Under the pieces are notes generated by a model. The model searched no databases. It had not been told where the DNA came from and was given only the letters and a program-made list of their open reading frames with translations. A program made the position numbers and the translations under genes. Shown one piece after another: positions 21,535 through 51,608 of a stretch of 64,000 nt of DNA; position 1 is the stretch's first letter; every line of letters begins with the position of its first letter. The stretch spans positions 4,781 through 68,780 of the forward strand of contig JAHISK010000055.1 of the NCBI GenBank assembly GCA_018818105.1. The letters are read 5' to 3'. The DNA is from Candidatus Omnitrophota bacterium. GTDB taxonomy: Bacteria > Omnitrophota > Gorgyraeia > Duberdicusellales > 4484-171.

Positions 21535-21572
21535 TAAAAAAAAGCCGGGTTACCTTTTGAGGTAACCCGGCT
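21535..21572 (-). terminator. Intrinsic terminator / attenuator hairpin (perfect 12-bp stem AGCCGGGTTACC/GGTAACCCGGCT, loop UUUUGA, then U8) about 20 nt upstream of the giant-gene start codon
   Basis: Plus strand reads aaaaaaaagccgggttaccttttgaggtaacccggct. On the minus strand this is a hairpin followed by TTTTTTTT and then ATGCCGGAAGTAAAAAAGATATGGGC. Confidence 0.6.
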
Positions 21573-21599
21573 ATCCTGAATCAATTTTGTACCGAAAGA

Positions 21600-21740
21600 C
21601 GATAGATGTCCGTTCTCTACATCGCTCGGACGATAAACGTTCTTATACTCTCGTTTTTCGTCCTTCGTCTTACATCCTTCGTTACTAGGACCCGTGGCTT
21701 TGCGCCTCCCGATTACTCGAGATTTGCCATTTCTGAAAAA
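21600..21740 (-). ncRNA. Candidate c-di-GMP-I (GEMM) riboswitch aptamer in the 5' leader of the giant gene
   Basis: The minus-strand leader reads AAAUGGCAAAUCUCGA-GUAA-UCGGGAGGCGCAAAGCCACGGGUCC. This resembles the remembered Vc2 consensus GGCAAACC-stem-GNRA-stem-GGGACGCAAAGCC-nCGGG, including a 6-bp stem capped by a GNRA tetraloop. A terminator lies immediately downstream. Not run through a covariance model. Confidence 0.35.
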
Positions 21741-21839: not shown

Positions 21840-21920
21840 TATTTTACTAAATGATATTGTTATGATTCGGCTTGATATCGTTATGATATTGTTATGATAT
21901 CATTGTGATGCTGTATCATA
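21840..21920. repeat. Array of ATGATAT / GTTATGATAT iterons and ATGATATCAT palindromes between the divergent giant-gene and RAYT promoters
   Basis: Sequence reads aaatgatattgttatgattcggcttgatatcgttatgatattgttatgatatcattgtgatgctgtatcata. Confidence 0.5.
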
Positions 21921-22065
21921 CAAATTCACCACCTAAAAAGATCCTCATATAACCATATCATAACCATGGTAGACGTCCCTAAAGGAGGGCCCTATAAAAA
22001 ATTTTAAAAATTTGAAAGAAAAACACCTTCTCATTCGTCTATTATATAAGAGGGTGAAATTCACA

Positions 22066-22617
22066 ATGAAAAACAGAAAAAAGAACAGATTGCTTGGATA
22101 TGATTATCGGCAATATGGCTATTATTTTGTAACCATTTGTAGCAACAATAGGATCAAATGGTTTGGAAATATTGAAAATAACCATATGGTTTTAAATCTA
22201 TCTGGGCAAATTGTTCGACAACAATTGCAATGGTTAGAAAAAAGGTATTCGTATATAAAATTAGATGAATACATTATTATGCCCAATCATATACATGGAA
22301 TAATAATTATAAAAAATTATGTAGGGAACGGTCGCGACCGTTCCCTACAACAAATAAAATCATTATCATCAATAATAGGCGCGTTTAAAACAACGTCGTC
22401 AAAATTAATCCATCGAAATAAATTATTAGAATTCAAATGGCAAAAATCATTTCATGATCATATAATCAGAAACGATAAATCATTACACCAAATCCGCGAA
22501 TATATTATAAATAACCCTCTGAATTGGAATAACGATGAAAATAATATTATTCCAAAATATAGTAAGGACGGTATCTCCAAAAAGCCCCTCCCGACAATAA
22601 AAAACCGGCTATTTTGA
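22066..22617 (+). mobile_element. RAYT / IS200-like HuH tyrosine transposase (Y1 transposase, TnpA_REP-like)
   Basis: HuH motif NHIHGII and catalytic tyrosine in IREYIINNP. Core reads YYFVTICSNNR. The start is chosen at the internal Met with an AGAGGGTGA ribosome-binding site; the track ORF starts at 22012. Confidence 0.65.
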
Positions 22618-23865: not shown

Positions 23866-23900
23866 CCGTCTTCTGGTTTCTATACTCTGGTTTCTGATTA
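23866..23900. repeat. REP-like GAAACCAG-family repeat (CTGGTTTC orientation), single copy
   Basis: Sequence reads ttctggtttctatactctggtttctgatt. Confidence 0.5.
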
Positions 23901-23907
23901 CTCTATA

Positions 23908-25296
23908 TTATATCCCATACTCTTCCAATCCTAAAATTCTTAGTTTTCTTCCGTCTTCTACTTCCCCATGAGCCTCTAAAACTATAATATCCGATTCCTT
24001 TATGCCGCTTAAAATCTGAGTATAATCCGGACCCATATAACCTATTTTCACTTCTCTAAAGGTTATAGTTCCACTGCCTTCTCCTCGTTTAATTTTTTCT
24101 AAATCAATACCTTGATCTAATTTAACCACAGGAATAACAACAACATCCGGCGTCATTTGTAACAAGCTCATTGTTGGAACCATTATTTCTGAATCGAATT
24201 TTGCTAGAAGAATCGAAACCTGCGCGAACATCCCAGGAAGAAGAACTTTTTCTTCATCCACAATATTAACCTCGGCTTTCATTGTCCGGCTTCTTCCTTC
24301 AACAATAGGATAAAGATTACCTACTTTACCAATGAATTCTTTATTAGGATAAGCGTCTACTTTAATTACCGCTGTCTGTCCAATAGAAGCTTTATGAATA
24401 TCACGTTCCACAACACCAACCTCGGCATATACATCTTTAAGCCCTAACAAGTTTACTACAATATCCCGCGGTGTAAAAAATTCTCCCTCTTCAGCATCCC
24501 GCGATCCAACTATACCGTCTATCGGCGAGCGTAACTCTGTTTTTTCTAGCGAAGACGTGGCCATCTTAAATTCCTCTTGAGACACTCTTACCTTAGCCCG
24601 TTCACTTTCAATCCGTAGCTTAACTTCTTGTAATTTGCTTTCTATTATCGCTCCTTTGTCATATAATAAAGTATTTAACTCCAGCTCCTTTTCAGCTGCC
24701 CCTAACGCCGCGGTATCAGAGTCCAGTTTACCTTGAGCACGAGCTATCGCTAATAGTGAATCCTTCTTATTAAGTATCGCGATAATTTCTCCTTCTTTTA
24801 CGCGGTCGCCTTCTTTTACCATAATTTTATCAATAACCCCTTCTTTTTCAAACCTCATCTTAATTTCTTTCGAGCTTTTAATATCTCCCGTTACTGGTAA
24901 CGCGTTTTCATACCTTACCTTTTTCACGTTAAATACCCTCGCCGGCAAAGGCGGTTCCTGACTAACTTCTTCTCCCTGCTGCAACAGCTTACCCAAAATA
25001 CCCTGAATTTTTTCTTCTTTCGAGGCTTTTTCATCTTCATGATATTTTTTTTGTTCCTCTAGCATCTCCAGCAAAGAAATATCCTCTTCTCCCTCGCCAT
25101 TTGTTTCATCCGCTAAATTAGAGTCTTCTTCTACCACGTATCCCGAAGCATATTCTTCAGTGTCAACTGAAACAGATTCTATCTCTTTTCCCCTATTTAC
25201 TCGTTGAGCCCTTTGAGATGAATCCCATAAAACTAACACCGCAAAAATAACTATAATCACCACAAAAACAAAAAATAATTTCTTTTTCTCATTCAT
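23908..25296 (-). CDS. Efflux RND transporter periplasmic adaptor subunit (HlyD/MFP family)
   Basis: N-terminal TM helix, coiled-coil hairpin region and a beta-barrel/lipoyl-like region (...RSPIDGIVG..., ...LLPGMFAQV...). Confidence 0.7.
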   Translation of the reverse strand: MNEKKKLFFVFVVIIVIFAVLVLWDSSQRAQRVNRGKEIESVSVDTEEYASGYVVEEDSNLADETNGEGEEDISLLEMLEEQKKYHEDEKASKEEKIQGILGKLLQQGEEVSQEPPLPARVFNVKKVRYENALPVTGDIKSSKEIKMRFEKEGVIDKIMVKEGDRVKEGEIIAILNKKDSLLAIARAQGKLDSDTAALGAAEKELELNTLLYDKGAIIESKLQEVKLRIESERAKVRVSQEEFKMATSSLEKTELRSPIDGIVGSRDAEEGEFFTPRDIVVNLLGLKDVYAEVGVVERDIHKASIGQTAVIKVDAYPNKEFIGKVGNLYPIVEGRSRTMKAEVNIVDEEKVLLPGMFAQVSILLAKFDSEIMVPTMSLLQMTPDVVVIPVVKLDQGIDLEKIKRGEGSGTITFREVKIGYMGPDYTQILSGIKESDIIVLEAHGEVEDGRKLRILGLEEYGI

Positions 25297-25324: not shown

Positions 25325-27397
25325 TTAATCTTTCTTACAGATTTGTGTATTTTCAACAAACGGGAATAACCCTAAGGAATAAGATGTGGTATTATCTAAA
25401 CTCGCTAAAGAAATCAGATAACTTACCTTAGCACGAATTAATGCCAATCGCTTACGTATATAATCCGCCCTAGCCTTAACTATTTCTGAAAGATTGGCTT
25501 TTCCTATTTTAAATGCTTCTTTTTTTAAATCTAAATTCACACTGCTAAATTTAGCCTCAAATAAAGCAACCTCATATTCATCATAAGACTGCTGATACTC
25601 TAAAAAACTTTTTCTAGTATCAAAAACTACTTCCTGTTTATTCCTAGATAAATTACTCAAATTTTGAGAGTACGCGATATCGGCTTCTTTTTTCTGCACA
25701 TAATACTGTAACTTATCCATAATACCTAATTTTGCCGAATACGTTGTTGACGCGACTTTTCGAGAAATCTCTGTTACGTCTTTAGAACTTATTCTTTCAT
25801 CAGAACTGGATACTTCAAAAGAATTACCGCCAAACAGCCATGTAACAACGCCCATCATCTTCCATTCTTCACCTAAATTTAAATCTTGCTCAGAAAAAGC
25901 CTCACCTGAAGCGCCATAAGAAGTAACAACATCAAACCGGGGCGCGCTTTCACTACTGGCAATATCTCTAGCGTATTTCGCTGATTCTAAACTTATTTCC
26001 CACAACTTAACATCAGGTTTATTTTCTAATGCTAGCTTTATACACCGGTCAACATCAATATCTATTTCCCCCAACAATGGGATTTCCTTCTCTATAAAAG
26101 CAATCTTTTCTTCCGGCGGTAAATTCATAGCCGCGCGCAACTTTGCTTTTGACAATATAAGTTCATTATTAGTTTGTCCTATCATGTTTAAGGTTCGTTT
26201 ATTTTCTGCTTCTATTTCCATAAACTCAATTCGGGAAATAGCTTTGACTTCATAAATATCTTTAGCTAAATTAAAATCACGGCTGATATTTTCTTTAAAA
26301 GAAGATAACTCTTCCAACTCTTCATTCTTTCCTAAAATATTAACATAAGACCTAACAACCTCTAATTTCAATTCCTGCAAAGTCTTTTTATATTCATTCT
26401 CCGCTACTTCAAGATTTAATTTTTCTTTACGAAAAGTTTTAGCGGTTTTACCTCGATCATAAAGATTATGTCTTAATTGAATAGCATAAGCCTGGCTTTC
26501 ATAAGGATCGGTTATAGTATTGCCTTCGGAAACACTATACTGCATTTCCATTTTTGGAAATAAATTTCTCCTAGATTCATTTATTTTCAAACGCGCTAAG
26601 CCCAACTGCTGCCGCGCTACTTTCGCGGGATCAGACTTATCTAACGCTTCCTTGAATAATCTTTCAGCTTCCGTAACTACTCCTCTTATTTTACCCTCCT
26701 CTCCTATAAATTCTCTACCCACAGAAGTTTCGGATAACATCATTTCTGGTTGTCCACTGGGTTTACTCTTCCCAACCTTTGCGCTGATATCTACCTTATG
26801 TTCTCCCGAATCTATCATAGATTGATCATTCATCTTGATATCGCTTTTACACCTCGCTTTCTCAATTTCATCATCTATTAGCTTCTTTCTTCTACTTTCG
26901 TCTTTCCCTTCTATCTCTATCTCCCCTGCCCCTATTCTCTCTTCTCCATCTCCTCTCCTATCTCCTATCTCCTGCTTGCCCTCCGTAGCCTTGGCGAAGG
27001 AGGGTCTTCGGTCTTCAGTCTGACATCCCACAACTTCTATAGGCAACCTCATTGTTAACTTAGTTCCTTGGGAAGCCGGCAACGGTGGATATGGTGATAA
27101 CGCTTTGACCAAATTCTTAGCTTCCCAATCAAAATCGGGTACGCCGGAACTGTTTACCACTCTGACTAAATATATCTTGCCGCTAGATAAAATGCTAACC
27201 TCTAAAACAGTACGTATTTTACCCGCGGGAATAGTTGAGTGAGGAAACTGACTATATTGGATATGATTAGCTATTCTTCGCGAAACCGTAGATACATAAT
27301 CAGTTACATCATCTTCGGCAAAAGATAACGACATACCGCCTAAAAAAACAAAACCAGTAACCGCCAGAACAATAAAAGCATTCTTTATTTTTTTCAT
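25325..27397 (-). CDS. TolC-like outer membrane efflux factor with an N-terminal TonB C-terminal-like domain
   Basis: Signal peptide, then YLVRVVNSSGVPDFDWEAKNLVKALSPYPPLP (TonB_C-like), a low-complexity linker, then outer-membrane-factor coiled-coil/barrel repeats. Confidence 0.6.
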   Translation of the reverse strand: MKKIKNAFIVLAVTGFVFLGGMSLSFAEDDVTDYVSTVSRRIANHIQYSQFPHSTIPAGKIRTVLEVSILSSGKIYLVRVVNSSGVPDFDWEAKNLVKALSPYPPLPASQGTKLTMRLPIEVVGCQTEDRRPSFAKATEGKQEIGDRRGDGEERIGAGEIEIEGKDESRRKKLIDDEIEKARCKSDIKMNDQSMIDSGEHKVDISAKVGKSKPSGQPEMMLSETSVGREFIGEEGKIRGVVTEAERLFKEALDKSDPAKVARQQLGLARLKINESRRNLFPKMEMQYSVSEGNTITDPYESQAYAIQLRHNLYDRGKTAKTFRKEKLNLEVAENEYKKTLQELKLEVVRSYVNILGKNEELEELSSFKENISRDFNLAKDIYEVKAISRIEFMEIEAENKRTLNMIGQTNNELILSKAKLRAAMNLPPEEKIAFIEKEIPLLGEIDIDVDRCIKLALENKPDVKLWEISLESAKYARDIASSESAPRFDVVTSYGASGEAFSEQDLNLGEEWKMMGVVTWLFGGNSFEVSSSDERISSKDVTEISRKVASTTYSAKLGIMDKLQYYVQKKEADIAYSQNLSNLSRNKQEVVFDTRKSFLEYQQSYDEYEVALFEAKFSSVNLDLKKEAFKIGKANLSEIVKARADYIRKRLALIRAKVSYLISLASLDNTTSYSLGLFPFVENTQICKKD

Positions 27398-27453
27398 ATT
27401 ATAAATTTATTTTATCCAGATATCGCCCACATGTCAATCTCATCGACGTAAAA

Positions 27454-27485
27454 AGAAACCAGTAACCAGTTTACAGAAACCAGAA
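27454..27485. repeat. REP-like repeat AGAAACCAGTAACCAGTTTACAGAAACCAGAA; left arm of the inverted pair flanking 4HB gene 27497..27853
   Basis: Identical copy at 29112-29143. Reverse-complement partner at 27880-27914. Confidence 0.7.
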
Positions 27486-27496
27486 AATTGCCCAAA

Positions 27497-27853
27497 TCAA
27501 CTATTTAATAAACCTCTCAGCATACTTGTAATTTCTCTAACAGCTAACCTTAACTCTAAATAACATTGTTCCTCTATCAAATTCTGTCTTTTTAAAACAT
27601 TAAGAACAGACGCACATTCTCTTGCAGAATCAGAAGAAATATCAAAATATCTATTCTTTTCTTTTTTAGATTTCTTACCATTTCCCTCTGCTATATTATT
27701 AGCAATAGATAATGCCGCTCTAATAAAATTATTACCAATAGAATATTTATAATCGATTTTTAATCGTTTATATATTTCAAATACTTTGTCTATAAAAACT
27801 AACGTCTTCTGATATACTTTTAAATTTTCAAAATCAAATCTAAACTCTTCCAT
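27497..27853 (-). CDS. Four-helix-bundle protein (23S rRNA intervening-sequence protein family, TIGR02436-like)
   Basis: YQKTLVFIDKVFEIYKRL...AALSIANNIAEGNGK...ECASVLNVL is typical of this family. Confidence 0.75.
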   Translation of the reverse strand: MEEFRFDFENLKVYQKTLVFIDKVFEIYKRLKIDYKYSIGNNFIRAALSIANNIAEGNGKKSKKEKNRYFDISSDSARECASVLNVLKRQNLIEEQCYLELRLAVREITSMLRGLLNS

Positions 27854-27855
27854 TC

Positions 27856-29088
27856 CTATTTGCTCTCTCTTCTCTCTTGTTCTCTGGTTTCTGTACTCTG
27901 GTTTCTGGTTTCTAATAAAAAATATCTCCCCGGCCCAGAAGGGCCATGCGGCATTATAAATCCTTTATCCTGCATTTCCTTTAAATCACGCGCCGCTGTT
28001 GGAGTAGAAACATCAAATTTATCAGAATACTCTTTTCTTGTAATTTTTTGATTTTCTTTTAAATATTCTAATGTTTTTCTTTGTCGGTCATTTAAATCTA
28101 AGATTCGCGTAGCCTCATTTTTACTAACTTCAGCCACCGGAGATTTTTCTTCTAGCACAGGTTCATTTACTGATTCCTTACTCTGAAGTTGTTTTCTTAA
28201 AGATTCTATTTCCCTATTTAAATCCTCAATCTTTTTTGACAATTCTTCATTTTTTTTAATCATTTCCTCATCTACCGACTCTTGGATAGGTTGCTCTTCT
28301 CTTTCTTTAATCTGCCGCTGTAATTCATCATTTCTACCCACAGCTTCCTTTAACTTAGCCGCTACTTGCTCAAGCTTTACCGCCTGTTCCTTTATTTTCT
28401 GTTTGCTCTGCTCCGGATCCGGCGCTTGCGCTGCCTGAGCTTGGTAATCTTTAATTTTTTCGTCTTTATTTTTTAACTCTTCTCTTACTTTATCCAGCTG
28501 ACTCTGGCTTTCCTGAATTTTTGCCTGCATTAAGTCCTCTTTCTTAATAAGTAACTCTTTTTCTTCTTTTAATTTCGCTGACGCGATCTGCGCTTCTTTC
28601 GTTCTTATCTCTAACTCGCTCAATGCTTTACGTAACTCTTCCTCTTTAGTTTTTAACTTGTCGACGGTAGTTTTAAGCTCAGTTTGTAGAGAACCTAATT
28701 TAGAATCAAATCCTGCTTTATTAGCGTCTATTTTATTTAATTGATCCTGAAGCTGGATAACTTTAGCTTCATGAGAATTCTTCTCAACTGTTACATCCTG
28801 AAGTTGATTCCTTAAATTATCTACATTCAAATTAGCATCGTTACATGCTTGATCTTTTTCCTGTAGCTGCTTCTTTAGTATTTCTAATTCCTCGGATAAA
28901 GAATTTATTTGCTCTCCAGCCGCTGATTCCTGTTCATTATAAGATTCTTTCGTTTCTTCTCGAGCATGTTTTATATTATCTTCCCGCGAAGACTCCCTTT
29001 CCTCAGCAGATTTCTCTTCGGGGAAAAAAATATAGTACAACATAACAATCGCGCCCGCCCCAACTAATAATACAAGAATAAAAAACAA
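27856..29088 (-). CDS. Membrane-anchored long coiled-coil protein with C-terminal winged-helix DNA-binding-like domain
   Basis: N-terminal TM helix MFFILVLLVGAGAIVMLYYIFF, then about 300 aa of K/E/Q-rich coiled coil. C-terminus reads ITRKEYSDKFDVSTPTAARDLKEMQDKGFI...GRYFLL. The 3' end of the ORF reads through a GAAACCAG repeat. Confidence 0.55.
   Translation of the reverse strand: MFFILVLLVGAGAIVMLYYIFFPEEKSAEERESSREDNIKHAREETKESYNEQESAAGEQINSLSEELEILKKQLQEKDQACNDANLNVDNLRNQLQDVTVEKNSHEAKVIQLQDQLNKIDANKAGFDSKLGSLQTELKTTVDKLKTKEEELRKALSELEIRTKEAQIASAKLKEEKELLIKKEDLMQAKIQESQSQLDKVREELKNKDEKIKDYQAQAAQAPDPEQSKQKIKEQAVKLEQVAAKLKEAVGRNDELQRQIKEREEQPIQESVDEEMIKKNEELSKKIEDLNREIESLRKQLQSKESVNEPVLEEKSPVAEVSKNEATRILDLNDRQRKTLEYLKENQKITRKEYSDKFDVSTPTAARDLKEMQDKGFIMPHGPSGPGRYFLLETRNQSTETREQERRESK
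27880..27914. repeat. REP-like repeat (CTGGTTTC orientation); right arm of the inverted pair flanking 4HB gene 27497..27853
   Basis: Sequence reads ttctctggtttctgtactctggtttctggtttctaa, the reverse complement of the 27454-27485 family. Confidence 0.7.
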
Positions 29089-29111
29089 AATATTTTTCCT
29101 TTTCTTTTTAT

Positions 29112-29208
29112 AGAAACCAGTAACCAGTTTACAGAAACCAGAATTAAATTTTTATTAATTTCCTCTGGTTATTCTTTCTTCTTTTACATTCTCTGGTTTC
29201 TGGTTACT
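29112..29208. repeat. REPIN-like doublet: GAAACCAG-family repeat (29112-29143) and its inverted partner (29191-29208) separated by about 47 nt
   Basis: agaaaccagtaaccagtttacagaaaccagaa ... ctctggtttctggttact. Confidence 0.65.
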
Positions 29209-29274
29209 TAACTACATTCTACCCAACAACTTACACCTTATCAATCAAAAAATATATTTTATTATTATTTTTAA

Positions 29275-32200
29275 TCAAAGAGATCGAGGCTTAATGAAAG
29301 AAAATATCTTTTTTATATCCTCTGCCATCATATAAATAGATGGAATAATAAAAAGCGTTAAAAAAGTAGAAGTTATCATACCCCCTACAACTGTTACTGC
29401 CAACGGCCGCCAAAGAGAAGAAGTTCCTCCTCTTTGAAAAATTAACGGAATCATTGTTAAAATGGTAGTTAAACTTGTCATAAGAATCGGGCGCAGCCGC
29501 CAAACGACTGCCTTAATTATAGATTCTCGCGCTCCAAAAAAACTATTATTTTTTAAACCTTTATACGCGCCTACGCCGCGCAGCCGGTTAATATAATCTA
29601 TCAGAATAATAGCATTGTTTACTACTATCCCTATAAGAATAACCGAGCCTATATATACGCCTAAACCTATAGGTTCTCCTGATAAACGCAACCCTATTCC
29701 TACCCCAATTATAGCCATGGGCACAGAACTTAACACAATAAATGGTTGAGTATATGATTCAAACACAGAAGCTAATACAAGATATACTAAAAATAGCGCT
29801 AAAAACATCGCCTGAGTTAACTCTCGTTGATTACGTATCATTTTATCGTAATCACCGCCAAAACTATAATGATAATCTTTAGGAAAATCCATTCCGGCAA
29901 GCGCCTCATTTACTAAATCAGCGGATTCACTCAATGACAGCTTACCTGAATCAGCGCTTACCTGAACCATTCTTTCTTTATTTTTACGCCAAATTTCCGC
30001 GGGACCAACGCCAGATTTCACCTCAGCTATCTGCTGTAAATATACCATAGTATTATCCTTTCCTCTCAATGAAAGGTTATAAATATCAGTTAACGTGTCT
30101 CTAAACCCTTTTTCCAACCGCGCTATAGTTTCAATTTGACGCGTCCCTTCGCCTTCAAAGCTGCCAATTCCTCCCATCGCCGCGGAAAGTTTTTTAGTCT
30201 CCTGATGAACTAACTCGTTTCCGTAATTTTTTATCGTGGGTAAATTCTTAACTTCCGAACTCTGCGTCTTAAGCATTACTCCTTCGGCGGATGAAGCATG
30301 AAACCGTGTAGCAATCAACCCACGCAATTTAGCGTGCAAAATATTAGAAACATCCAGCATTGTAAGACCGTATAAAGCTAATTTATTTCTATCAAACAAA
30401 ATATGAACTTCCGGCCGGCCGCTGCGCATCCTTAACTTAACATCATTAAACTTACCCGTACTCTGAATTAATCCTCCTATTTGCTGGGCTAAACTTTTCA
30501 GCAATTCATAATCCGGGCCAAAAACTTCAACCATTATTTCCTTTCTACCAACAGATTCCGGCTGCTGCGCGTATACAAACGCCGGGTCCATATCTTTTGT
30601 TTTCTGTCGTATCTCTTCAATAATCTCATCAACCCCGCGCTTAGAGGAAGAAGGTTTTAACTCAACATAAATTTGTGAAGACCACCCTTTAATTCTTGAA
30701 GTGTGATTTTTTATTTCCGGGATACTATCTAAAATCGCCTCAACTTTCGTTACTACATCGTCGGAAATCTCTATCTTTGTACCTGACGGCATCTGAACGT
30801 ACACAGTAAACCTACTCTGTTCGGCTATCCCTATAAACTCACGTCCCAACCGAGACATCTGAATAAATACTATTATTAGTAAAATAACTGTTCCCGCGAT
30901 AAATAGATATCTTTTTCCTAACACAAAATTTATGCATTTCTTATATCCTCCTACTAAATCATTAAAACGATATCGTTCTATAATTTTGTAAATTTTGTGA
31001 AACCAAATTTTACTGTTTTTTCTCTCATCATTATTAGGTTCAATGACTTGTAATAATTCTTTATCCTCTCTTTTATTTTTTCTTCCCAAATTACCCTTCT
31101 TTGTTGATATTCGAGAAGCCAACAAAGGAACCAGTGTAAAAGAAAAAAATAAAGACGCGAATAACGAGAACACTACCGTTAACGCCAACCCACTGTACAA
31201 ACGTTTAATTTCTTTATTCACAAAAAATAAAGGTAAAAACACAACAATAGTTGTAAGCGTTGAAGCGGCTATCGCGATTAATACTTCGCTGGAACCTTCT
31301 TCAGCGGTTGTTTTTAAATCCTCTGATTCGCTCTGTTTATCAGCTTCCCTTAATTCCTCTCTTTTTTTAAAAATGTTCTCAAGAACAACAATGGAACTAT
31401 CCACTAATATTCCTATCCCTAAAGCTATTCCGCTTAAAGTAACAACATTAATACTAATTCCGCTAAGATACATTAAAGAAAAGGCCGTTATTACTGAAAA
31501 AGGAATAGTTAAAGCGACGACTAAAGTATATTTGAAGTTACGTAAAAAAAGCCATAGCACAATCATCGTTAAAAACGCGCCGATATATAAAGCGTGACGC
31601 ACGGTCGTAATTGCCTGTTTAATGTAATCAGCATGATTAAAATATGGGCGCGTATTTACATCTTGGGGCAAACTTTTCTTCAATTTAGCTAACTCTTTTT
31701 CTACTTCTTCAACAACTTTAATAGTGTTGGCTCCCGACGCTTTTTGAATATACAATGATACTGACGGTTCAGAATTCACTCTTGCCAAAGCATGAGGATC
31801 TAAATAAGAAACACTCACCTTAGCCAAATCTCTTATTCTAACCATATGAGCTTCCCCGCCGGGATTAATTGGCAAATCTTTTATGTCATCTAAAGAAACA
31901 AACTGTCCTACAGTTCTTACTAAATATGTTGTTGAACCGCGTTTTACGTCTCCCGCGACTAAATTCAAATTATTTACGTTTAGCGCCTGGATAACATCAT
32001 CTATGGTAATTCCGTGAGACCGTAACGCGACTTCGTTTAACTCAACAAAAATTTTCTCTTCCCTTCCTCCACCAACCTCAACTTTCGCCACGCCCTCAAT
32101 ACGAGAAAAACGGCTTTTCATTTTGCTTTCGGCTAACCGACGCAACTCCTCAACCGTTCTTATAGGACTGGTTACACCCAAAATAACTACCGGTACCTGT

Positions 32201-32604
32201 GAATACTCATATTTAGCTATAACGGGGCGCTCAACTTCTTTAGGCAAACTCTCCTGCACCTGAGAAAAATGCTCCCTTACTTCTACTACCGCGTAATCTA
32301 AATTAATTTCCGGTTTAAAATAAAGGATAATTCGGCACTCGCCTTCTTCTGAAATTGTAATAATATCTTCTAACCCATCGATAACTGATAACGCGTCTTC
32401 TAAAGGCTTTGCTATTCTATCCTCTACTTCCTGAGGGCTAACCCCTCCTCTAATACGTAAATCAACAGAGATATTTCCAATTTCTACATTAGGTTTCAAT
32501 TCTACCGGCAGGCGAAAAAGAGCAAAGAGCCCTAAAAGAAGAAAAATCAAAAACACCATGGAAATGGCAATTGGTCTACGTATAGATAATTTAGGTAGAT
32601 TCAT
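29275..32604 (-). CDS. RND efflux transporter permease subunit (AcrB/MdtB/C family), copy 2
   Basis: 1109 aa, 12-TM RND architecture. N-terminus MNLPKLSIRRPIAISMVFLIFLLLG... Confidence 0.8.
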   Translation of the reverse strand: MNLPKLSIRRPIAISMVFLIFLLLGLFALFRLPVELKPNVEIGNISVDLRIRGGVSPQEVEDRIAKPLEDALSVIDGLEDIITISEEGECRIILYFKPEINLDYAVVEVREHFSQVQESLPKEVERPVIAKYEYSQVPVVILGVTSPIRTVEELRRLAESKMKSRFSRIEGVAKVEVGGGREEKIFVELNEVALRSHGITIDDVIQALNVNNLNLVAGDVKRGSTTYLVRTVGQFVSLDDIKDLPINPGGEAHMVRIRDLAKVSVSYLDPHALARVNSEPSVSLYIQKASGANTIKVVEEVEKELAKLKKSLPQDVNTRPYFNHADYIKQAITTVRHALYIGAFLTMIVLWLFLRNFKYTLVVALTIPFSVITAFSLMYLSGISINVVTLSGIALGIGILVDSSIVVLENIFKKREELREADKQSESEDLKTTAEEGSSEVLIAIAASTLTTIVVFLPLFFVNKEIKRLYSGLALTVVFSLFASLFFSFTLVPLLASRISTKKGNLGRKNKREDKELLQVIEPNNDERKNSKIWFHKIYKIIERYRFNDLVGGYKKCINFVLGKRYLFIAGTVILLIIVFIQMSRLGREFIGIAEQSRFTVYVQMPSGTKIEISDDVVTKVEAILDSIPEIKNHTSRIKGWSSQIYVELKPSSSKRGVDEIIEEIRQKTKDMDPAFVYAQQPESVGRKEIMVEVFGPDYELLKSLAQQIGGLIQSTGKFNDVKLRMRSGRPEVHILFDRNKLALYGLTMLDVSNILHAKLRGLIATRFHASSAEGVMLKTQSSEVKNLPTIKNYGNELVHQETKKLSAAMGGIGSFEGEGTRQIETIARLEKGFRDTLTDIYNLSLRGKDNTMVYLQQIAEVKSGVGPAEIWRKNKERMVQVSADSGKLSLSESADLVNEALAGMDFPKDYHYSFGGDYDKMIRNQRELTQAMFLALFLVYLVLASVFESYTQPFIVLSSVPMAIIGVGIGLRLSGEPIGLGVYIGSVILIGIVVNNAIILIDYINRLRGVGAYKGLKNNSFFGARESIIKAVVWRLRPILMTSLTTILTMIPLIFQRGGTSSLWRPLAVTVVGGMITSTFLTLFIIPSIYMMAEDIKKIFSFIKPRSL

Positions 32605-32616
32605 AATTATTTAAAA

Positions 32617-32645
32617 GGGTCAAGGGGCAGGGGGCAAGGGGCAAG
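32617..32645. repeat. GC-rich TTGMCCC/GGGKCAA-family repeat; left arm of the inverted pair flanking 4HB gene 32652..33041
   Basis: GGGTCAAGGGGCAGGGGGCAAGGGGCAAG; about 25/28 complementary to 33059-33087. Confidence 0.7.
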
Positions 32646-32651
32646 AAAAAT

Positions 32652-33041
32652 TTAAGATTTCAAAGACTTAATTAACCCCTTTAATAACCGGCCTACTTCT
32701 TGACGTCTATCATTAATCATTTTGTATATTTCAATATTTATATAACCTAAATCTTTAGAAAATAAAAAATACGTTTCCACTTCACCTAATGACCCTTTTG
32801 CTATCATCAAAAACTGAATATATTCTTTACGATACTGCCTTTCATACCCCTCTGCTATATTAGCAACAACCGATATAGCGGCCCTTCTCAATTGAGAAAC
32901 TAAACCATACTGTTCACTCCTAGGATAATCACGCGTAATTTTATATACTTCTAACGCCAATTCATATGCTTTCTTCCATACAATTAACTTCTTAAAACCC
33001 TTCTCCATTTCTTTCTCTCTATATTTTTCTCTCTTAACCAT
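32652..33041 (-). CDS. Four-helix-bundle protein (23S rRNA intervening-sequence protein family), second copy
   Basis: KKLIVWKKAYELALEVYKITRDYP...QLRRAAISVVANIAEGYERQ...MIAKGSLGEVETY. AAGGAAGAAG ribosome-binding site upstream. Confidence 0.8.
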   Translation of the reverse strand: MVKREKYREKEMEKGFKKLIVWKKAYELALEVYKITRDYPRSEQYGLVSQLRRAAISVVANIAEGYERQYRKEYIQFLMIAKGSLGEVETYFLFSKDLGYINIEIYKMINDRRQEVGRLLKGLIKSLKS

Positions 33042-36000
33042 CTCTATATTCTTCTTCCTTGACCCTTGCCCCCTGACCCTTGCCCCTATTTATAAATGCT
33101 GTAACAGAATCATACAGCACAGGGACGAACAAAAGCGTTAGGAACGTGGACGAAAGCAAACCTCCAATTACAGTAATAGCCATAGGAGCCCGTAATTCAG
33201 AACCTTCACCAATACCTATAGCAAGAGGTATCATTCCTAAGACAGTGGTGAAAGTCGTCATAAGAATAGGACGTAGCCGATGCTGACTGGCTTCTAAAAT
33301 AACTTCTTTTAAAGGCAAATTCTTTTTCTTTAAATGGTTCATATAATCCACTAAAACTATCCCGTTATTTACAACAATCCCGCCCAACATAATAGCGCCC
33401 AAAAGAGCGACTACATTCAAAGAAGTAGAAGTTAACTTCAACGCGACGCTTATGCCTATAAGAGAAAGAGGAACTGTAAACATAATAATAAACGGCTGCC
33501 ATAACGACTCAAATTGCGCCGCCATAATCATATAAATTAAAAGAATCGCTAATAAAAAAGCAAACTTCATGCTGTTAAATGATTCCCGCATACGAACGCT
33601 CTCACCAGAAAGGCCTACGTTATATCCTAACGGAATATTTAATTTCTCTACTATACCGGTTAACTGCGTATTAATTTCGCTAACACTGCGTCCATATAAA
33701 TTAGCATTAACAGATATTGTACGGCGCTGGTCTATCCGTTTAATTTCTGTGGGGCCTCTGCCTTTCGCAAGACGGGCAACCTGATAAAGAGGAACCATAA
33801 CATTCCTATACGCCGTCCTAATACCTAAAGATCTGATTCGGGATAAATTCTTTCTATCTTCTTCCTGCAAACGTACTCTAATATCTATAGGATGCGTTAC
33901 ATCCTCCTTAAACTTAGTAAAAACTCTTCCCTTAATGGCAGTATGCGCGGTTAACGCGATATCCTGAGTAGATAAACCTAACAAAGAAGCTTGGTCTTTA
34001 AGTATATATATTTTTGTTTCGGGAGAAGAAGGGACCCTATCATCTTCTATACTATAAACGCCTTTTATCGAAGATAGTTCTTTTTTTATCTGATCAGCTA
34101 CATCGCCCATCTGTAAAAGGTTCTCCCCTTTTATTTCAATTTGAATAGGTTTATCCTCAAACGCTTCCTTCAAAACACTTTCCTGCAAAACATACTCTAA
34201 CTGAGCGCCGATTAAATGTTTTTCTTTCATAATATCCCGCAAACGTTGAATAACGTCTTGCGTGGAAAACAACGAAACAGCTTCCTTTTCCTTTAATTCT
34301 TTATAGGAATACAGCTTCACCATAATTTCGCCCTCATAAGAAGCCAAAGTTTGCACCGCTTTTTCCGTGGGGTTATCTTTATCCGAACCTACTTTTATAC
34401 TAACATCTTTAACTTCTTTTATTTCATTGAGAAGAACTTCCTCCACCATACGCACAGCGTTATCAGTAACTTCTAAACTTGTTCCCGGCTCCATGGTAAG
34501 TTTTATTATAAACTGCCGCTGATCAAGCCGAGGCAAAAATTCGCTGGGCACAGTTTTTAAAATCACCAAGCTTAAAAGAAATAATCCTATAACAACAAAT
34601 ACAAGAATCGCTTTATTATCTAAAGTTTTTGATAAAAGACGGCGGTATAAATTATCAATTCCATTAAAAAGGAGATCAACTTTTGCTTGGCCGTCTTTGC
34701 TTTCTTTAATTCCACCGCCTAAAGAAGAAAGCATCGGCACCAACATCAACGCTATCAATAACGACGAAACCAAAGAAAAGGTTACCGTAAACGCCAATTG
34801 CTTAAAAAGCTGTCCGGCTATACCGGAAAGAAACATCATCGGAAAAAATACGCACACTGTTGTGAGAGTGGAAGAGATAATTGCTCCTTTCATCTGAAAA
34901 GACGCCTGAGACACAAGCGATAACGCTTCTTGCTTTGAGAGTTTTTTGTCCTGTTTTGATCTTTCCTGCTGCCGGCGAAAAATATTTTCAAGAACAACAA
35001 TAGAGTTATCCACTAACATTCCTACTCCTAATGCCAACCCTCCTAAAGAAATCATGTTCAAAGAAATATTCCTGGAAAACATCAATATAAACACACCCAT
35101 AATTGATATAGGAATAGCTGTAGCAATAATTAAAGAAATCTTAAGGTTCCTTAAAAAAACGAGTAAAACTAGAAAAGCCAAAACCCCGCCGCCTATGGCA
35201 GCGTTCCTAACTCCTTTTATCGAATTCGCGACATACACCGACTCATCATAAGCAATATCCAACTTTACGTCTAAAGATGGATTTTTATTCATTCGATACA
35301 CTTCTTCTTTAACCCTCTCACAAACGTCTATTACATTAGCGCCAGACTGTCTCTTAATTGAAATAGATATGTTTTCAACACCATTATGGCGGGAAATACT
35401 TTCTTTTTCTTTAGCTACATTTTTTACCTGAGCGATATCACTTAGCCGAACTAACCGGGCAGTTTTCTCCTGAAGCTCATCCTTAATGCCAAGTTGGCGT
35501 TCTCTCTGCTCTTCTTCAGTTTCAGGAACATCCACTAAAACTGTTAACTCACTGATTTCATCTAACGTCTCAAACTCACCTATTGTTCTGACCAAATGCT
35601 CATAAAAACTTCCCTTTATCGACCCCGCGGGATAATTAATATTTGATTTTTTTATTACCGAGCCTAAATCCAACAAAGAAAGGCCTGAAGCCTGTAGCCG
35701 TGACTGATCAACCTCTATTAGAATCTCCCGCCCAACTCCTCCTGTAATAACCGCGGCGGCAACACCTTTTAACTTTTCTAAATCATCTTTCATTTGCCGC
35801 TCACAAACTTCCCTCAATTCTAACAAAGACTCTTTTCCCGTCACGCTTAACACAATAACCGGTTTCTCAAAGGGATTATACTTCATAACAATCGGTTCAC
35901 CGCAATCCCTCGGAAGGCGTTCCTTAACTAAATCTATTTTTTCACGCACCTCCAAAGCGGCTAAATCCATGTTCGTTCCCCAGTCAAAACGCACCATTAC

Positions 36001-36291
36001 CATAGATAACGCTTCCCGGGAAATTGAGCTAATCTGTTTAACCCCGCTTATCGCCCCGCCCGATTCTTCTAAAATTTGAGATATTAAACTTTCAACTTCT
36101 TCCGGGGCCGCCCCTTCATAGGGTGTCAAAATTGTTATTTGAGGATACGATATGGAAGGAAATAATTCCTGAGAAAGGCGGGACAAAGAAACCATTCCCA
36201 TAACTACAACCGCTAAAAAAATCATAGCCGTAGTAACAGGGCGCATTATGAAGATACTAATCTTTTCCAGTTTCTTTCTTCGGTCTTTCAT
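33034..36291 (-). CDS. RND efflux transporter permease subunit (AcrB family), copy 1. The start is probably ATG at 36291; the track start 36333 reads through a repeat
   Basis: MRPVTTAMIFLAVVVMGMVSLSRL...PYEGAAPEEVE; 12-TM RND fold. Confidence 0.8.
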   Translation of the reverse strand: MKDRRKKLEKISIFIMRPVTTAMIFLAVVVMGMVSLSRLSQELFPSISYPQITILTPYEGAAPEEVESLISQILEESGGAISGVKQISSISREALSMVMVRFDWGTNMDLAALEVREKIDLVKERLPRDCGEPIVMKYNPFEKPVIVLSVTGKESLLELREVCERQMKDDLEKLKGVAAAVITGGVGREILIEVDQSRLQASGLSLLDLGSVIKKSNINYPAGSIKGSFYEHLVRTIGEFETLDEISELTVLVDVPETEEEQRERQLGIKDELQEKTARLVRLSDIAQVKNVAKEKESISRHNGVENISISIKRQSGANVIDVCERVKEEVYRMNKNPSLDVKLDIAYDESVYVANSIKGVRNAAIGGGVLAFLVLLVFLRNLKISLIIATAIPISIMGVFILMFSRNISLNMISLGGLALGVGMLVDNSIVVLENIFRRQQERSKQDKKLSKQEALSLVSQASFQMKGAIISSTLTTVCVFFPMMFLSGIAGQLFKQLAFTVTFSLVSSLLIALMLVPMLSSLGGGIKESKDGQAKVDLLFNGIDNLYRRLLSKTLDNKAILVFVVIGLFLLSLVILKTVPSEFLPRLDQRQFIIKLTMEPGTSLEVTDNAVRMVEEVLLNEIKEVKDVSIKVGSDKDNPTEKAVQTLASYEGEIMVKLYSYKELKEKEAVSLFSTQDVIQRLRDIMKEKHLIGAQLEYVLQESVLKEAFEDKPIQIEIKGENLLQMGDVADQIKKELSSIKGVYSIEDDRVPSSPETKIYILKDQASLLGLSTQDIALTAHTAIKGRVFTKFKEDVTHPIDIRVRLQEEDRKNLSRIRSLGIRTAYRNVMVPLYQVARLAKGRGPTEIKRIDQRRTISVNANLYGRSVSEINTQLTGIVEKLNIPLGYNVGLSGESVRMRESFNSMKFAFLLAILLIYMIMAAQFESLWQPFIIMFTVPLSLIGISVALKLTSTSLNVVALLGAIMLGGIVVNNGIVLVDYMNHLKKKNLPLKEVILEASQHRLRPILMTTFTTVLGMIPLAIGIGEGSELRAPMAITVIGGLLSSTFLTLLFVPVLYDSVTAFINRGKGQGARVKEEEYRDG
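33059..33087. repeat. GC-rich TTGMCCC-family repeat; right arm of the inverted pair flanking 4HB gene 32652..33041
   Basis: TTGACCCTTGCCCCCTGACCCTTGCCCCT. Confidence 0.7.
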
Positions 36292-36304
36292 AAAAATATT
36301 TTGT

Positions 36305-36662
36305 AGGGTCAAGGGGCAGGGGTCATGGGTCAAAGAATTAGAAAGCTAACCAATCCTTTCACCAAAAACCTAATTTTATATCTAAAAACGAAACTAAATA
36401 CCCCTTATTACAACTTAATATCTATTTTAAAGATAAAAACAAATATTGAAAGATATTTTTATCTCTTACCCCATTTTCTTATCTTGATTTATCTTTTTCT
36501 ATCTCCCCTCTTCATCTATGGACTATGGTCTATCGACTATGGACGAATTATTCTCCCTTCTCCCCTTTCTCTAACTTTGCTTTCTCCTTAACCTAAAACT
36601 TAAAACCATTTTTCCTTGCCCCTTGACCCTTCTTCTCTTAATTCTTCCTTGACCCATGACCC
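36305..36662. repeat. Inverted pair of TTGMCCC-family repeats (36305-36334 and 36612-36662) enclosing about 270 bp with no convincing gene
   Basis: GGGTCAAGGGGCAGGGGTCATGGGTCAAAG ... CCTTGCCCCTTGACCC...CCTTGACCCATGACCCAT. The interior contains ctatggac x3. Confidence 0.55.
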
Positions 36663-36780
36663 ATATCATTTACCATTTATCATTTATCATTTTAAATTAT
36701 TATATATTTTTCCTCTTAAGCAAATGCTAATTTTAAAATGTTAATTGGTAAATTTAAAATTTCTATCCCTTGACCCTCTT
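36647..36780. repeat. About 150-bp dispersed repeat element, copy A, with (CATTTAC/T) x3 tract; it abuts the stop codon of gene 36781..38631 and lies upstream of the RND locus
   Basis: More than 90% identical to 44555-44710 outside the heptad tract. Both ends carry TTGACCC boxes. Confidence 0.8.
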
Positions 36781-41789: not shown

Positions 41790-41919
41790 ACTACCGTACC
41801 TCCCTCTTTTTTCTACAATATTATTATTCTTATTATTACCTACTCTCTGTTTTCTCATCCTTCGTCCTTCTTCCCTCATCTCTCGTTTCATCTTCATCCT
41901 CCCCATATTTATTTATATC

Positions 41920-42390
41920 TATTATCTCCAATCTCCCATCTATAATCTGCCATCTAAAAAAAAGCCGGGTCACCCAACTTTTCTGTTCGGCAACCCGGCT
42001 CCTAAATACGTAGAAACGCGACTAAAAATACTTTAGCAATCACATTTCCACTATCTACGCCGTGGCTTTCCCCTCTTACTCTAAACGAATAAGAAGAGCT
42101 TTTTCGTAGAAAGTCAAAATTAACTTATTCCCTTCAAAGAACCTTTATTTCACCCACTTACCACCTCGTAGGTGGTAAGTATCTGCTATCTGAAATCTCC
42201 CATCTCCCATCTAAAAAAAAGAAACCGGGCCACCTTCTATTCGGCAGCCCGGCTAAACTAAATGTAGAAATGCGCATGTATCTAAGAGAAAAACCTCCCC
42301 TCATCAACTGCTACCTTCTACTCCCGTGGCTTTCCCCTCTTACTCTAAACGAATAAGAAGAGCTTTTCGTAGAAAGAAAACTAAGAAAAA
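41920..42390 (-). repeat. Two tandem ~264-bp leader units, each ending in a GCCGGG hairpin terminator (41955-42000 and 42212-42253), upstream of secreted-protein gene 38760..41789
   Basis: Conserved block ccgtggctttcccctcttactctaaacgaataagaagagctttt(t)cgtagaaag at 42060-42114 and 42324-42376. AATCTCCCATCT repeats sit before each A-tract plus hairpin. Confidence 0.65.
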
Positions 42391-42711
42391 AATAGCCCGA
42401 CTAAATAACTATTTTCCTCTATTATAATAAAGAACTGTTAAATTCCTAATTACCCTAATTGTTAAATACTTATTGAAAATATTGATCTTATGCCTCCCCT
42501 TTGGCATGTTACACATATATACCATATATTTACCATATTTTTCAAGCTTTTCTAGCATTTTTTTTCAAAAAATTCATCTTCTTTCATAACTATTTGATAA
42601 TCAACCAGTAATGAACCTCAAAAATAGAGAATTTTTATATTTATTTTCCCGTATCTTTAAATAAAGCATATTTTTCACGCATATTAGCCTCTTCGGTATA
42701 AAATAGTTCCC

Positions 42712-42745
42712 TGCCCCCCTTTTTCAAAAAAAAAAAGGGGGGGGA
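42712..42745. repeat. Homopolymer hairpin CCCCCCTTTTT-CAAAAAA-AAAAAGGGGGGGG, about 70 nt upstream of the HTH-MNT promoter
   Basis: C6 and G8 tracts are unusual in this AT-rich context. Confidence 0.5.
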
Positions 42746-42809
42746 GGAGATAGTTGTGGTTTTTCCATCTTTCACGATATCTACAAACATTCACCCAACA
42801 GAAAATTAC

Positions 42810-42864
42810 TTGACAAACACCCTAATGTAAGATATATTTTACACATGTAAACAAAAATTTACAT
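42810..42864 (+). promoter_or_regulatory. Near-consensus sigma70 promoter (TTGACA-17-TATATT) plus palindromic operator ATGTAAA-N6-TTTACAT, upstream of the HTH-MNT/HEPN/PIN operon
   Basis: ttgacaaacaccctaatgtaagatatattttacacATGTAAAcaaaaaTTTACATaattATG. Confidence 0.5.
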
Positions 42865-42868
42865 AATT

Positions 42869-44554: not shown

Positions 44555-44710
44555 TCGTTGACCCATGCCCCATATAATTTACCATTTACCATTTACCATT
44601 TACCATTTACCATTTACCATTTTAAATTATTAAATATTTTTCCTCTTAAGCAAATGATAATTTTAAAATGTTAATTGGTAAATTTAAAATTTCTGACCCT
44701 TGACCCTTTT
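44555..44710. repeat. About 150-bp dispersed repeat element, copy B, with (CATTTAC) x5 tract, between the convergent PIN and CNNM genes
   Basis: Aligns with 36647-36780; differs in heptad copy number and about 6 substitutions. Confidence 0.8.
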
Positions 44711-51539: not shown

Positions 51540-51608
51540 CTCCTTTTCGATAGTGTAGAGCGTTTAGCGGATAGCGTATAGTTTTTTCTAAACGCTGCCC
51601 GCTAAGCG

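Follow-up and report, generated by a model that had tools for sequence, protein, structure and literature searches.

Why do two genes of a protein family named after the intervening sequences (IVSs) of 23S rRNA stand inside an efflux operon, each of them between a pair of inverted repeats? The question is raised by a 64,000-nt stretch of DNA from a Candidatus Omnitrophota bacterium (GCA_018818105.1, contig JAHISK010000055.1, positions 4,781–68,780; hereafter the window), in which a sequence-only reading, made by a model without database searches, had noticed two four-helix-bundle (4HB) genes, here called 4HB-1 and 4HB-2, in a resistance-nodulation-division (RND) efflux locus and had compared their layout with that of IVSs, where flanking inverted repeats form a stem cut by RNase III. 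Here, we report that each 4HB gene is probably the cargo of a compact cassette with arms that are predicted to form an RNase III-type stem in the operon transcript. The original observation is confirmed and its interpretation partly supported: the IVS analogy proved correct and deeper than first proposed, and three features had gone unseen, namely the heptamer periodicity of the arms, their purine-first polarity and the co-variation of arm family with protein clade.

Inverted heptamer arrays bracket both 4HB genes

Both 4HB proteins belong to PF05635/TIGR02436, scoring above the curated cut-offs (33.8 bits for PF05635 and 24 bits for TIGR02436) of a domain of ~106 residues, and they share only 26% identity with each other. 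No third copy was found in the window by tblastn, and neither protein gave a PADLOC defence-system match. Both proteins matched PDB 2GSC (E 2e-19 for 4HB-2), a structure deposited with five chains. The 4HB-2 protein has 100% identity to P0001, an annotated Omnitrophica protein. Its gene had been placed at 32652–33041 by the sequence-only reading; this open reading frame (ORF) is real and has an in-frame ATG at 33041, but the public annotation starts at the ATG at 33008.

A repeat finder ranked the arms of cassette 2, around 4HB-2, first among the inverted pairs and those of cassette 1, around 4HB-1, third. The arms of cassette 1 are 34 nt long and 88% complementary with 392 nt between them, and those of cassette 2 are 43 nt long and 81% complementary with 406 nt between them, so both genes are bracketed where the repeats had first been noticed (Table 1). 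All four arms are tandem heptamer arrays, with a period of 7 in Tandem Repeats Finder: (AGAAACC)n in cassette 1 and (GGGGCAA)n in cassette 2, with the purine-rich arm first in the transcript in both cassettes. The two pairs had been assigned to unrelated repeat families, which holds for their sequences but not for their common architecture as tandem heptamer arrays. With period 7 at all four arms and a copy number that varies in a nearby element (3 versus 6 units), the arrays have the properties of heptamer repeats resembling the short tandemly repeated repetitive (STRR) sequences. Each cassette measures 460–480 nt, and its 3′ array begins 3–9 nt past the 4HB stop codon.

In both cassettes, the upstream ORF passes through the 5′ arm. 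The ORF of a 410-aa protein continues from ...RYFLL into the tail ETRNQSTETREQERRESK and stops 2 nt before the ATG of 4HB-1, and the ORF of the RND permease AcrB-1 continues from ...FINR through 16 extra codons, with a tail ending ...FINRGKGQGARVKEEEYRDG, and stops 25 nt ahead of the annotated ATG of 4HB-2, so that both 4HB genes could be translated by coupling.

The arms of cassette 1 can form a 30-bp duplex of −46.1 kcal/mol, against −13.5 ± 3.7 with shuffled 3′ arms, and those of cassette 2 a 37-bp duplex of −59.5 kcal/mol, against −27.0 ± 3.9, which in both cases is the long stem of terminal inverted repeats typical of an IVS. The predicted folds of the whole-cassette minus-strand RNAs are closed by these arm stems (z = −5.1 for cassette 1 and −3.6 for cassette 2), in agreement with the earlier expectation that folding would juxtapose the flanks. 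Among the 35 window ORFs that were scored, such bracketing is confined to the two 4HB ORFs, both of which have an upstream-versus-downstream inverted-repeat score of 48, compared with at most 24 for the other 33.

The architecture recurs across the 4HB family

We collected 105 related loci by similarity to the two window proteins, 80 from a scan with the 4HB alignment (one genome per species, more than 15 phyla) and 25 from a metagenome scan with 4HB-1; taxon labels are taken from record titles, and control ORFs were called heuristically. In the 76 loci compared, the median upstream/downstream inverted-repeat score was 32.5, against 16 when flanks were permuted between loci. Within the same loci, 4HB genes had a median score of 33 versus 18 for 281 neighbouring ORFs (p = 3e-20), and a score of at least 30 was reached by 57% of the 4HB genes versus 4% of the neighbours. 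In addition, 71% of 4HB genes scored above the 95th percentile of non-adjacent control ORFs (5% of controls by definition). The sequence-only reading had named 4HB genes lacking inverted repeats elsewhere as a finding that would speak against it; instead, flanking inverted repeats proved to be systematic.

The anatomy is equally recurrent. The best arm period was 7 in 51 of 63 cases and 8 in a further 8, and a purine-rich 5′ arm was seen in 45 of 63, a pyrimidine-rich one in 2. Arms had a median length of 30 nt, upstream arrays contained a median of 4.4 units (25 of 48 arrays between 4 and 5 units), and medians of 31 nt and 10 nt separated the end of the 5′ arm from the start codon and the stop codon from the 3′ arm, respectively, giving a median cassette size of 473 nt (interquartile range 448–511). 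Cassettes are mostly co-oriented with their neighbours (83% and 79% on the two sides) and tightly packed, and the upstream ORF extends into the arm in 14 of 49 cases. The 84 neighbouring proteins matched 128 Pfam families, including GrpE/Hsp70, ThiI, topoisomerase, UvrC, CheW and MacB, indicating that the 4HB genes are without a conserved functional partner. Cyanobacterial plasmids carry the same design, for example with GGGTGTA arms in Calothrix and GGAGTCA arms in N. punctiforme. These comparisons place the window cassettes in a class that spans more than 15 phyla and extends to cyanobacterial plasmids.

Conserved 23S motifs were absent from the 105 related loci, among which true IVSs are under-sampled because metagenome-assembled genomes often lack rRNA operons, and Rfam found no rRNA or tRNA in the window. 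No target-site duplication was detected, the longest common substring of the outer flanks averaging 3.9 versus 3.8 after permutation. As a separate observation, a 4HB gene on Nostoc PCC 7120 plasmid alpha (locus L110, 3776–4126) has only a 3′ CTCTGCC array and a transposase sequence upstream, where the 5′ arm may have been lost to an incoming insertion sequence (IS).

Arms follow the protein clade

Across the related loci, protein identity correlated with the sharing of arm 6-mers (Spearman 0.35), and none of 2000 Mantel permutations reached the observed value. Arms were shared by 88% of pairs with at least 70% protein identity and by at most 3% of pairs below 50%; among pairs from different phyla, 54% had arms in common at 60% identity or more, versus 3% below 50%. 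The protein clade of 4HB-2 is again accompanied by arms of the GGGNCAA family in Nitrospirota, Nitrospinota, Zixibacteria, Geobacter and Omnitrophota, and relatives of 4HB-1 with 60–71% identity have ACAGAGA-type arms like those of cassette 1, homology to which stops at the outer arm edges. The loci of these relatives contain no RND genes. In four of them (L086, L088, L090, about 1900–2460, and L089, about 800–1370) the cassette lies between grpE and dnaK, which makes a heat-shock operon another host context, and the GrpE ORF runs into the 5′ heptamer arm. Two cassettes with different arm families stand together in the window and in loci L072, L053 and L024; the window thus holds, within one operon, two cassettes that each have the arm family typical of their own protein clade. 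In these comparisons the heptamer family goes with the clade of the protein and not with the phylum of the host.

The ratio of nonsynonymous to synonymous substitution rates (dN/dS) was 0.04–0.12 where dS was measurable, and by this codon-level measure the 4HB ORFs of the cassette class are under purifying selection. Among the 112 pairs at or above 60% protein identity, dS was saturated in 87, which nevertheless still had arm 6-mers in common. Given that arms and proteins co-vary beyond synonymous saturation, we infer that the heptamer sequence itself, beyond complementarity, is constrained or actively homogenised. Arrays of the same family are also enriched near cassettes (47 sites versus 12.7 expected).

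Related operons lack the cassettes

A metagenome scan with AcrB-2 as a single protein did not find relatives of the host operon; orthologous operons were obtained by protein search and contig look-ups. AcrB-2 orthologues with 75%, 73% and 67% identity lie in fully syntenic Omnitrophota operons, L081, L082 (CP070797.1, a 1.5-Mb contig) and L083/L084, and no 4HB protein gene was found in the L081–L084 loci. At the AcrB-1/AcrB-2 junction, which holds cassette 2 in the window, stop codon and ATG are only 4 nt apart in L081 and 12 nt apart in L082, with neither a 4HB gene nor a repeat. The AcrB-1 protein of L081 ends in ...KFKNR (AAT AGG, then the stop codon TAG); in the window, AAT AGG leads straight into the heptamer arm and the ancestral stop codon has been lost. 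At the junction between the 410-aa helix-turn-helix (HTH) protein and the outer-membrane protein, which holds cassette 1, L082 has just a 44-nt spacer. At this place L081 contains a homologous purine-rich array (GAGAACA AAGTACA GGGGACA GAGAACA) that is read as a protein tail, a 5′ array only, with neither 4HB ORF nor 3′ arm, which looks like the remnant of a cassette loss.

The empty sites for which the sequence-only reading had proposed to search were therefore found, in the orthologous operons of two relatives, in which flanking genes stand 4–12 nt apart or overlap and paired arms are missing. The cassette was acquired as a unit, in sense orientation, at gene junctions, with arms that can form a duplex of at least 30 bp, and the operon comparison shows the two window cassettes as independent insertions at two junctions of a conserved Omnitrophota RND operon. 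In a third relative, L083, gene-less inserts of 500–550 nt occupy the same two junctions (9426–9932 and 14696–15246), which appear to be recurrent landing sites; the former, at the AcrB-1/AcrB-2 junction, has heptamer arrays at its edges together with other palindromic repeats of the type GTCATTGCGAGGAGCGAACGAAG...CGAAGCAATCTC.

A model for the cassette and what weighs against it

Taking these observations together, we propose a cassette that consists, from 5′ to 3′, of a purine-rich array of 4–5 heptamers, a spacer of 25–45 nt, a 4HB ORF of ~118 aa (PF05635/TIGR02436, also called S23p) and a complementary pyrimidine-rich array. It would be transcribed in sense within the host operon, and its arms would pair into a 30–37-bp duplex in untranslated or nascent RNA, a predicted substrate of the RNase III type. 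By analogy with rRNA-borne IVSs, cleavage at the two stems would release the cassette RNA and split the RND operon transcript. More speculatively, the pentameric 4HB protein may recognise its own array of 4–5 units, and nearby gene-less hairpins of the same family may be non-autonomous relatives of the cassettes.

Several points weigh against this model. About 30% of the sampled 4HB genes fall under the threshold, and in eight low scorers examined by eye heptamer arrays still flank the gene on both sides. The relatives with empty sites are only 67–77% identical in AcrB, so that gain and loss cannot be dated, and the solo array of L081 suggests loss at one of the junctions. RNase III processing of operon mRNA is plausible by analogy with the Coxiella 23S rRNA IVS only, and ribosomes translating the upstream ORFs across the 5′ arm would open the stem. 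Mismatches between arms show no excess of G:U over A:C (59 versus 70, p = 0.38); selection for pairing at the RNA level is thereby not independently supported, and a DNA-level process could also yield complementarity. Neither the cassettes nor the window contain a recombinase, transposase or reverse transcriptase and, with no target-site duplication either, no mechanism of mobility was identified. The gene-less hairpins, putative derivatives of cassettes, hold no 4HB remnant.

Alternative explanations

A serious alternative, which we nevertheless consider unlikely, is that the arms are chiefly binding sites of the 4HB pentamer on RNA or on single- or double-stranded DNA, with the stem secondary. 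Binding could then serve autoregulation, protection, or the maintenance and spread of the arrays, in analogy to TRAP on triplet repeats or to RAYT proteins (tyrosine transposases) on REPINs, the inverted doublets of repetitive extragenic palindromic (REP) sequences. This would account for an arm sequence that is kept with the protein clade across phyla past synonymous saturation, beyond what complementarity requires, and for the lack of a G:U signature of RNA-structure selection. The narrow array length of 4–5 units fits homologues deposited as five chains (2GSC and 2RLD), although the arrays of Xanthomonas mostly have 4 units, not 5 (PMC4692102). Binding to a specific RNA stem-loop is documented for the Avd pentamer, yet so far this member, from diversity-generating retroelements (DGRs), is the only one of the family for which binding is known. 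Likewise, the enrichment of same-family arrays near cassettes and the presence of one of the many Xanthomonas arrays on the 4HB gene of that genome argue for recognition, but at least six heptamer families of the window have no cognate 4HB gene within 64 kb. Such binding is compatible with RNase III processing.

It is very improbable that the 4HB genes of a genome full of intergenic, STRR-like heptamer repeats came to lie between them by chance. Heptamer arrays of many families do occupy most intergenic regions of the window, gene-less inverted pairs included, but only the two 4HB ORFs are bracketed among those scored, the association holds across many phyla in the 105 loci against within-locus controls, and arm families sort by protein clade instead of by genome; these controls exclude coincidence.

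Just as improbable is mobilisation by a RAYT-like tyrosine transposase, which would make the cassettes the mobile REPIN-like modules that the sequence-only reading had suggested. The RAYT gene that had been placed at 22066 corresponds to a RAYT-like ORF at 22012–22617 with weak family matches (PF01797, E 7e-5, 23.4 bits versus a cut-off of 23; NF047646, 65.8 bits, below the curated NCBIfam cut-off of 80), and the inverted doublets resemble REPINs in outline. However, the arms are tandem heptamer arrays rather than REP palindromes, at least eight unrelated heptamer families coexist, target-site duplications are absent, the RAYT-like ORF is flanked neither by heptamer families nor by an inverted repeat (score 16), and the partner in the cross-phylum association is the 4HB gene rather than a RAYT gene. 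A REPIN/RAYT system was rejected, failing every defining feature tested. In its own surroundings, the RAYT-like ORF has 5.5 copies of the 11-nt repeat ATGATATCGTT ahead of it (21851–21909) and a short GC hairpin after it.

We give equally little credence to the 4HB proteins as Avd-type DGR accessory proteins, or to the G-rich arms as G-quadruplex regulators of the efflux operon: the proteins match bAvd and DivGenRetAVD weakly, the GC-family arm contains four G-tracts and, in vitro, G-quadruplexes are formed by GGGAATC repeats (PMC4692102), but with the Avd model NF033474 the two proteins reached only 27.3 and 38.2 bits (cut-off 80), the window yielded neither a reverse transcriptase nor a template/variable repeat pair, and the AGAAACC arms of cassette 1, like most families at other loci, are without G-tracts, so that G-quadruplex formation cannot be the general principle. 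An element of the IS type or a transposable element of the miniature inverted-repeat kind (MITE) was rejected for want of target-site duplications and of a transposase in the cassettes, and a 23S rRNA IVS by location because both cassettes lie between protein-coding genes in a window without rRNA.

The host operon and other repeats of the window

From 41906 down to 22657 every gene lies on the minus strand, and together these genes form the RND efflux locus, transcribed in the order 1048-aa protein, 666-aa protein, AcrB-1, 4HB-2, AcrB-2, 410-aa HTH protein, 4HB-1, outer-membrane protein, adaptor and WD40 protein (Table 1). The true start of AcrB-1 is likely the ATG that gives MKDRRKK...

Table 1. 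Positions of the two cassettes, their host genes and associated gene-less arrays, listed in order of transcription
Feature	Position	Strand	Remarks
1048-aa protein and 666-aa protein		minus	First two genes in transcription order; function not assigned
Gene-less pair of GC-family heptamer arrays	36305..36662	minus	5′ region of AcrB-1; ~300 nt enclosed
AcrB-1, RND permease	33034..36291	minus	PF00873, E 2e-239; orthologues 71–77% identity in L081–L084
Cassette 2, 5′ arm	33055..33097	minus	GGGGCAA GGGUCAG GGGGCAA GGGUCAA, with further AT-rich pairing outside
4HB-2 gene, 118 aa as annotated	32652..33008	minus	PF05635 E 8.1e-39, 132.6 bits; TIGR02436 128.6 bits
Cassette 2, 3′ arm	32606..32648	minus	CUUGCCCC UUGCCCC CUGCCCC UUGACCC; ends 1 nt short of AcrB-2 start codon (32604)
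AcrB-2, RND permease	29275..32604	minus	PF00873; orthologues 67–75% identity
Gene-less AT-family hairpin	29112..29208	minus	Between AcrB-2 and 410-aa ORF; fold −27.2 kcal/mol, z = −3.4
410-aa coiled-coil protein, C-terminal winged-HTH domain	27856..29088	minus	Operon-conserved; orthologues in L081–L084
Cassette 1, 5′ arm	27880..27913	minus	AGAAACC AGAAACC AGAGUAC AGAAACC AGAG; inside 3′ tail of 410-aa ORF
4HB-1 gene, 118 aa	27497..27853	minus	PF05635 E 8.2e-26, 90.7 bits; TIGR02436 81.9 bits
Cassette 1, 3′ arm	27454..27487	minus	Pyrimidine-rich complementary array; closes minimum-free-energy fold
Outer-membrane efflux protein with TonB_C domain	25325..27397	minus	
RND periplasmic adaptor (membrane-fusion protein, MFP)	23908..25296	minus	TIGR01730, 179.6 bits
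Solo AT-family heptamer array	23866..23896	minus	Between adaptor (MFP) gene and WD40 gene
WD40 propeller protein		minus	Last gene of RND locus in transcription order

A scan for intrinsic terminators and promoters inside the cassettes gave nothing above shuffled expectation, and the sole notable site, a strong sigma-70-like promoter match (TTGACA-17-TAAAAT, 11 of 12 positions) at 27437 to 27409 on the minus strand, lies just downstream of cassette 1, between it and the outer-membrane gene. TTGACA also occurs at the matching position of the L082 empty site (L082 14490–14530), suggesting that an internal promoter is conserved here and was left intact by the cassette. Beyond the operon, a giant ORF of more than 7,247 aa (3–21743, minus strand) extends beyond the first position of the window. 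On the same strand, 21558–21738 match the c-di-GMP-I riboswitch (RF01051, 54.7 bits), so that the true start codon of this ORF must lie downstream of the riboswitch. In L081, a gene for 21,878 aa adjoins the corresponding RND operon.

Heptamer arrays stand in most intergenic regions of the window; they fall into at least eight families by sequence and are often paired in inverted orientation. Of the repeats described in the sequence-only reading, the GC-family pair without a gene and the doublet of the AT family are both real. The arms of the former (36305–36337 and 36609–36662) gave three inverted-repeat matches and were folded. Those of the latter lie at 29112–29143 and 29191–29208, and its 3′ arm (29112–29143, 32 nt) is 100% identical to 27454–27485 of the 3′ arm of cassette 1. 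Profile hidden Markov model searches of six-frame translations found no 4HB remnant in the gene-less hairpins (36290–36700, 29089–29274 and the L083 inserts; all E > 0.9). In five unambiguous cases judged by eye, a small sample (51560–51605, 56230–56295, 57840–57862, 29112–29208 and 36305–36662), the gene-less hairpins have the purine- or G-rich arm first relative to local transcription, the polarity of the 4HB cassettes.

Two further repeats were noted. A dispersed element of ~135 nt is present in two copies (36650–36780 and 44560–44710; 89% mean column identity over 172 aligned columns), near-identical apart from an indel and each directly 3′ of a minus-strand stop codon. It has GGGTCAA units at its borders and an internal (GGTAAAT)n array of either 3 or 6 units, depending on the copy, pointing to a recent change in heptamer copy number. 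The 962-nt intergenic region 41907–42868 contains two tandem units of ~260 nt, each of which combines a heptamer array of the ATCTCCC type with an A8 run, a GC-rich hairpin and a 44-nt block. The block has the same sequence in both (100% identity, 42060–42103 and 42324–42367), and Rfam gave no match; judged from their layout, the units look like two terminator-ended small transcripts on the minus strand.

Comparison with known systems

PF05635/TIGR02436 is a very large family, with at least 7,990 proteins at E ≤ 0.001 in one search, to which no function has been assigned. Our results suggest that one cassette type underlies the function and origin of 23S IVSs, the over-representation of heptamers in intergenic DNA and the scattered genes for 23S IVS proteins, three phenomena so far treated as unrelated. 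As a tentative generalisation, which we hold with less than even confidence, 4HB genes and their inverted heptamer arrays would form pan-bacterial, self-contained and horizontally spreading cassettes of ~470 nt, the pentamer would bind its own array of 4–5 units sequence-specifically, classical 23S IVSs would be rRNA-inserted cassettes, and intergenic heptamer repeats (cyanobacterial STRR, Xanthomonas GGGAATC, the arrays of the window), which have long lacked an explanation, would be gene-less and non-autonomous relatives. Such a relation would be analogous to that of RAYT and REPIN, built on a non-enzymatic RNA/DNA-binding ring.

The likeness to REPIN/RAYT systems and MITEs lies in dispersed inverted-repeat doublets, in gene-carrying next to many gene-less forms and in empty and filled sites. 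The cassettes differ from them in their heptamer arms, in the lack of a target-site duplication and in a cargo that is a non-catalytic four-helix bundle instead of an HUH or DDE enzyme, and the RAYT-like ORF of the window is unlinked to them. DGR Avd (bAvd, PDB 4DWL) has a homologous pentameric four-helix-bundle fold and binds structured RNA, the Avd pentamer having been found to bind an RNA stem-loop (10.1101/2023.10.23.563531). Here, by contrast, there is no reverse transcriptase, template or variable repeat, and both window proteins score well below the Avd threshold.

Like the cyanobacterial STRR, Xanthomonas GGGAATC and Nostoc GGGGAYT repeats (PMC4692102), the arms consist of tandem 7-nt units, about four of them, that are intergenic and often occur as convergent pairs in operons. 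Unlike those repeats, which were studied as simple-sequence repeats or G-quadruplex motifs, they are the two arms of a gene-carrying cassette and co-vary with its protein. In Xanthomonas, a genome with 186 GGGAATC arrays, of which 70 form convergent pairs, one such pair standing between groES and groEL (PMC4692102), a fourfold GGGAATC array overlaps the start codon of the 4HB gene XCC0516 (PDB 2GSC), 6 nt after accB/bccP (PMC4692102, supplement); that study did not connect the arrays to the 4HB gene. In the hmw 5′ untranslated region (5′-UTR) of H. influenzae, a transcribed heptamer array pairs, as predicted for the window cassettes, with a complementary G-rich arm in the mRNA, forming a long hairpin that is cleaved by RNase III, and both transcription and RNase III affect the repeat number (PMC12721329). 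The hmw element, unlike the window cassettes, is a regulatory 5′-UTR at a single locus and encloses no ORF and no 4HB gene.

The cassette design also bears on genes reported elsewhere. In a metagenomic survey, 18 intervening-sequence protein (IVP) genes located in cas operons were taken to be Cas-associated (PMC3936711); passenger cassettes are the simpler explanation. More generally, 4HB genes in cas, chaperone, acc and efflux operons are probably passengers and not functional partners, ORFs upstream of a cassette gain artefactual C-terminal tails, and operon mRNAs may, by analogy with IVSs, be segmented at cassette sites. Cultured carriers include Xanthomonas campestris (XCC0516), Nostoc punctiforme, Flavobacterium and Neorhizobium. 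A limited literature search turned up no paper on heptamer-bracketed 4HB cassettes outside rRNA, and an earlier mention, for example in TIGRFAM comments, is possible.

The closest relative is the 23S rRNA IVS itself, and the IVS-like layout recognised at the outset matches the anatomy of the bona fide Coxiella element. The Coxiella IVS is 428–444 nt long, with a 28-bp terminal stem and tandem GACAGAT heptamers upstream of the S23p ORF; its repeat number varies by strain, and RNase III cuts at the first repeat (PMC4990558). The window cassettes share with the IVSs of Coxiella burnetii and Leptospira a size of about 430–480 nt, a stem of ~30 bp formed by terminal inverted repeats (PMC4990558), a 5′ arm of tandem heptamers ahead of the ORF, a sense PF05635 ORF in the loop and sporadic presence or absence among relatives. 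They differ in their host, which is a gene junction of polycistronic mRNA instead of helix 25 or 45 of 23S rRNA, in the upstream protein-coding ORFs that traverse the 5′ arm, and in their 4HB ORFs: these are intact and purifying selection acts on them, whereas decay and a lack of translation were reported for the ORF of Coxiella (PMC4990558). RNase III excision was demonstrated only for bona fide IVSs (PMC4990558) and would operate here by analogy. In bacteria of the candidate phyla radiation (CPR), IVP ORFs occur at several insertion sites in both 16S and 23S rRNA genes (PMC11270868). Given that the protein-encoding 23S rRNA IVS, as in Coxiella, has the same design, we read it as the rRNA-borne special case of this class of cassettes, of which the element described here is a new IVS-type 4HB form that lives in mRNA operons.

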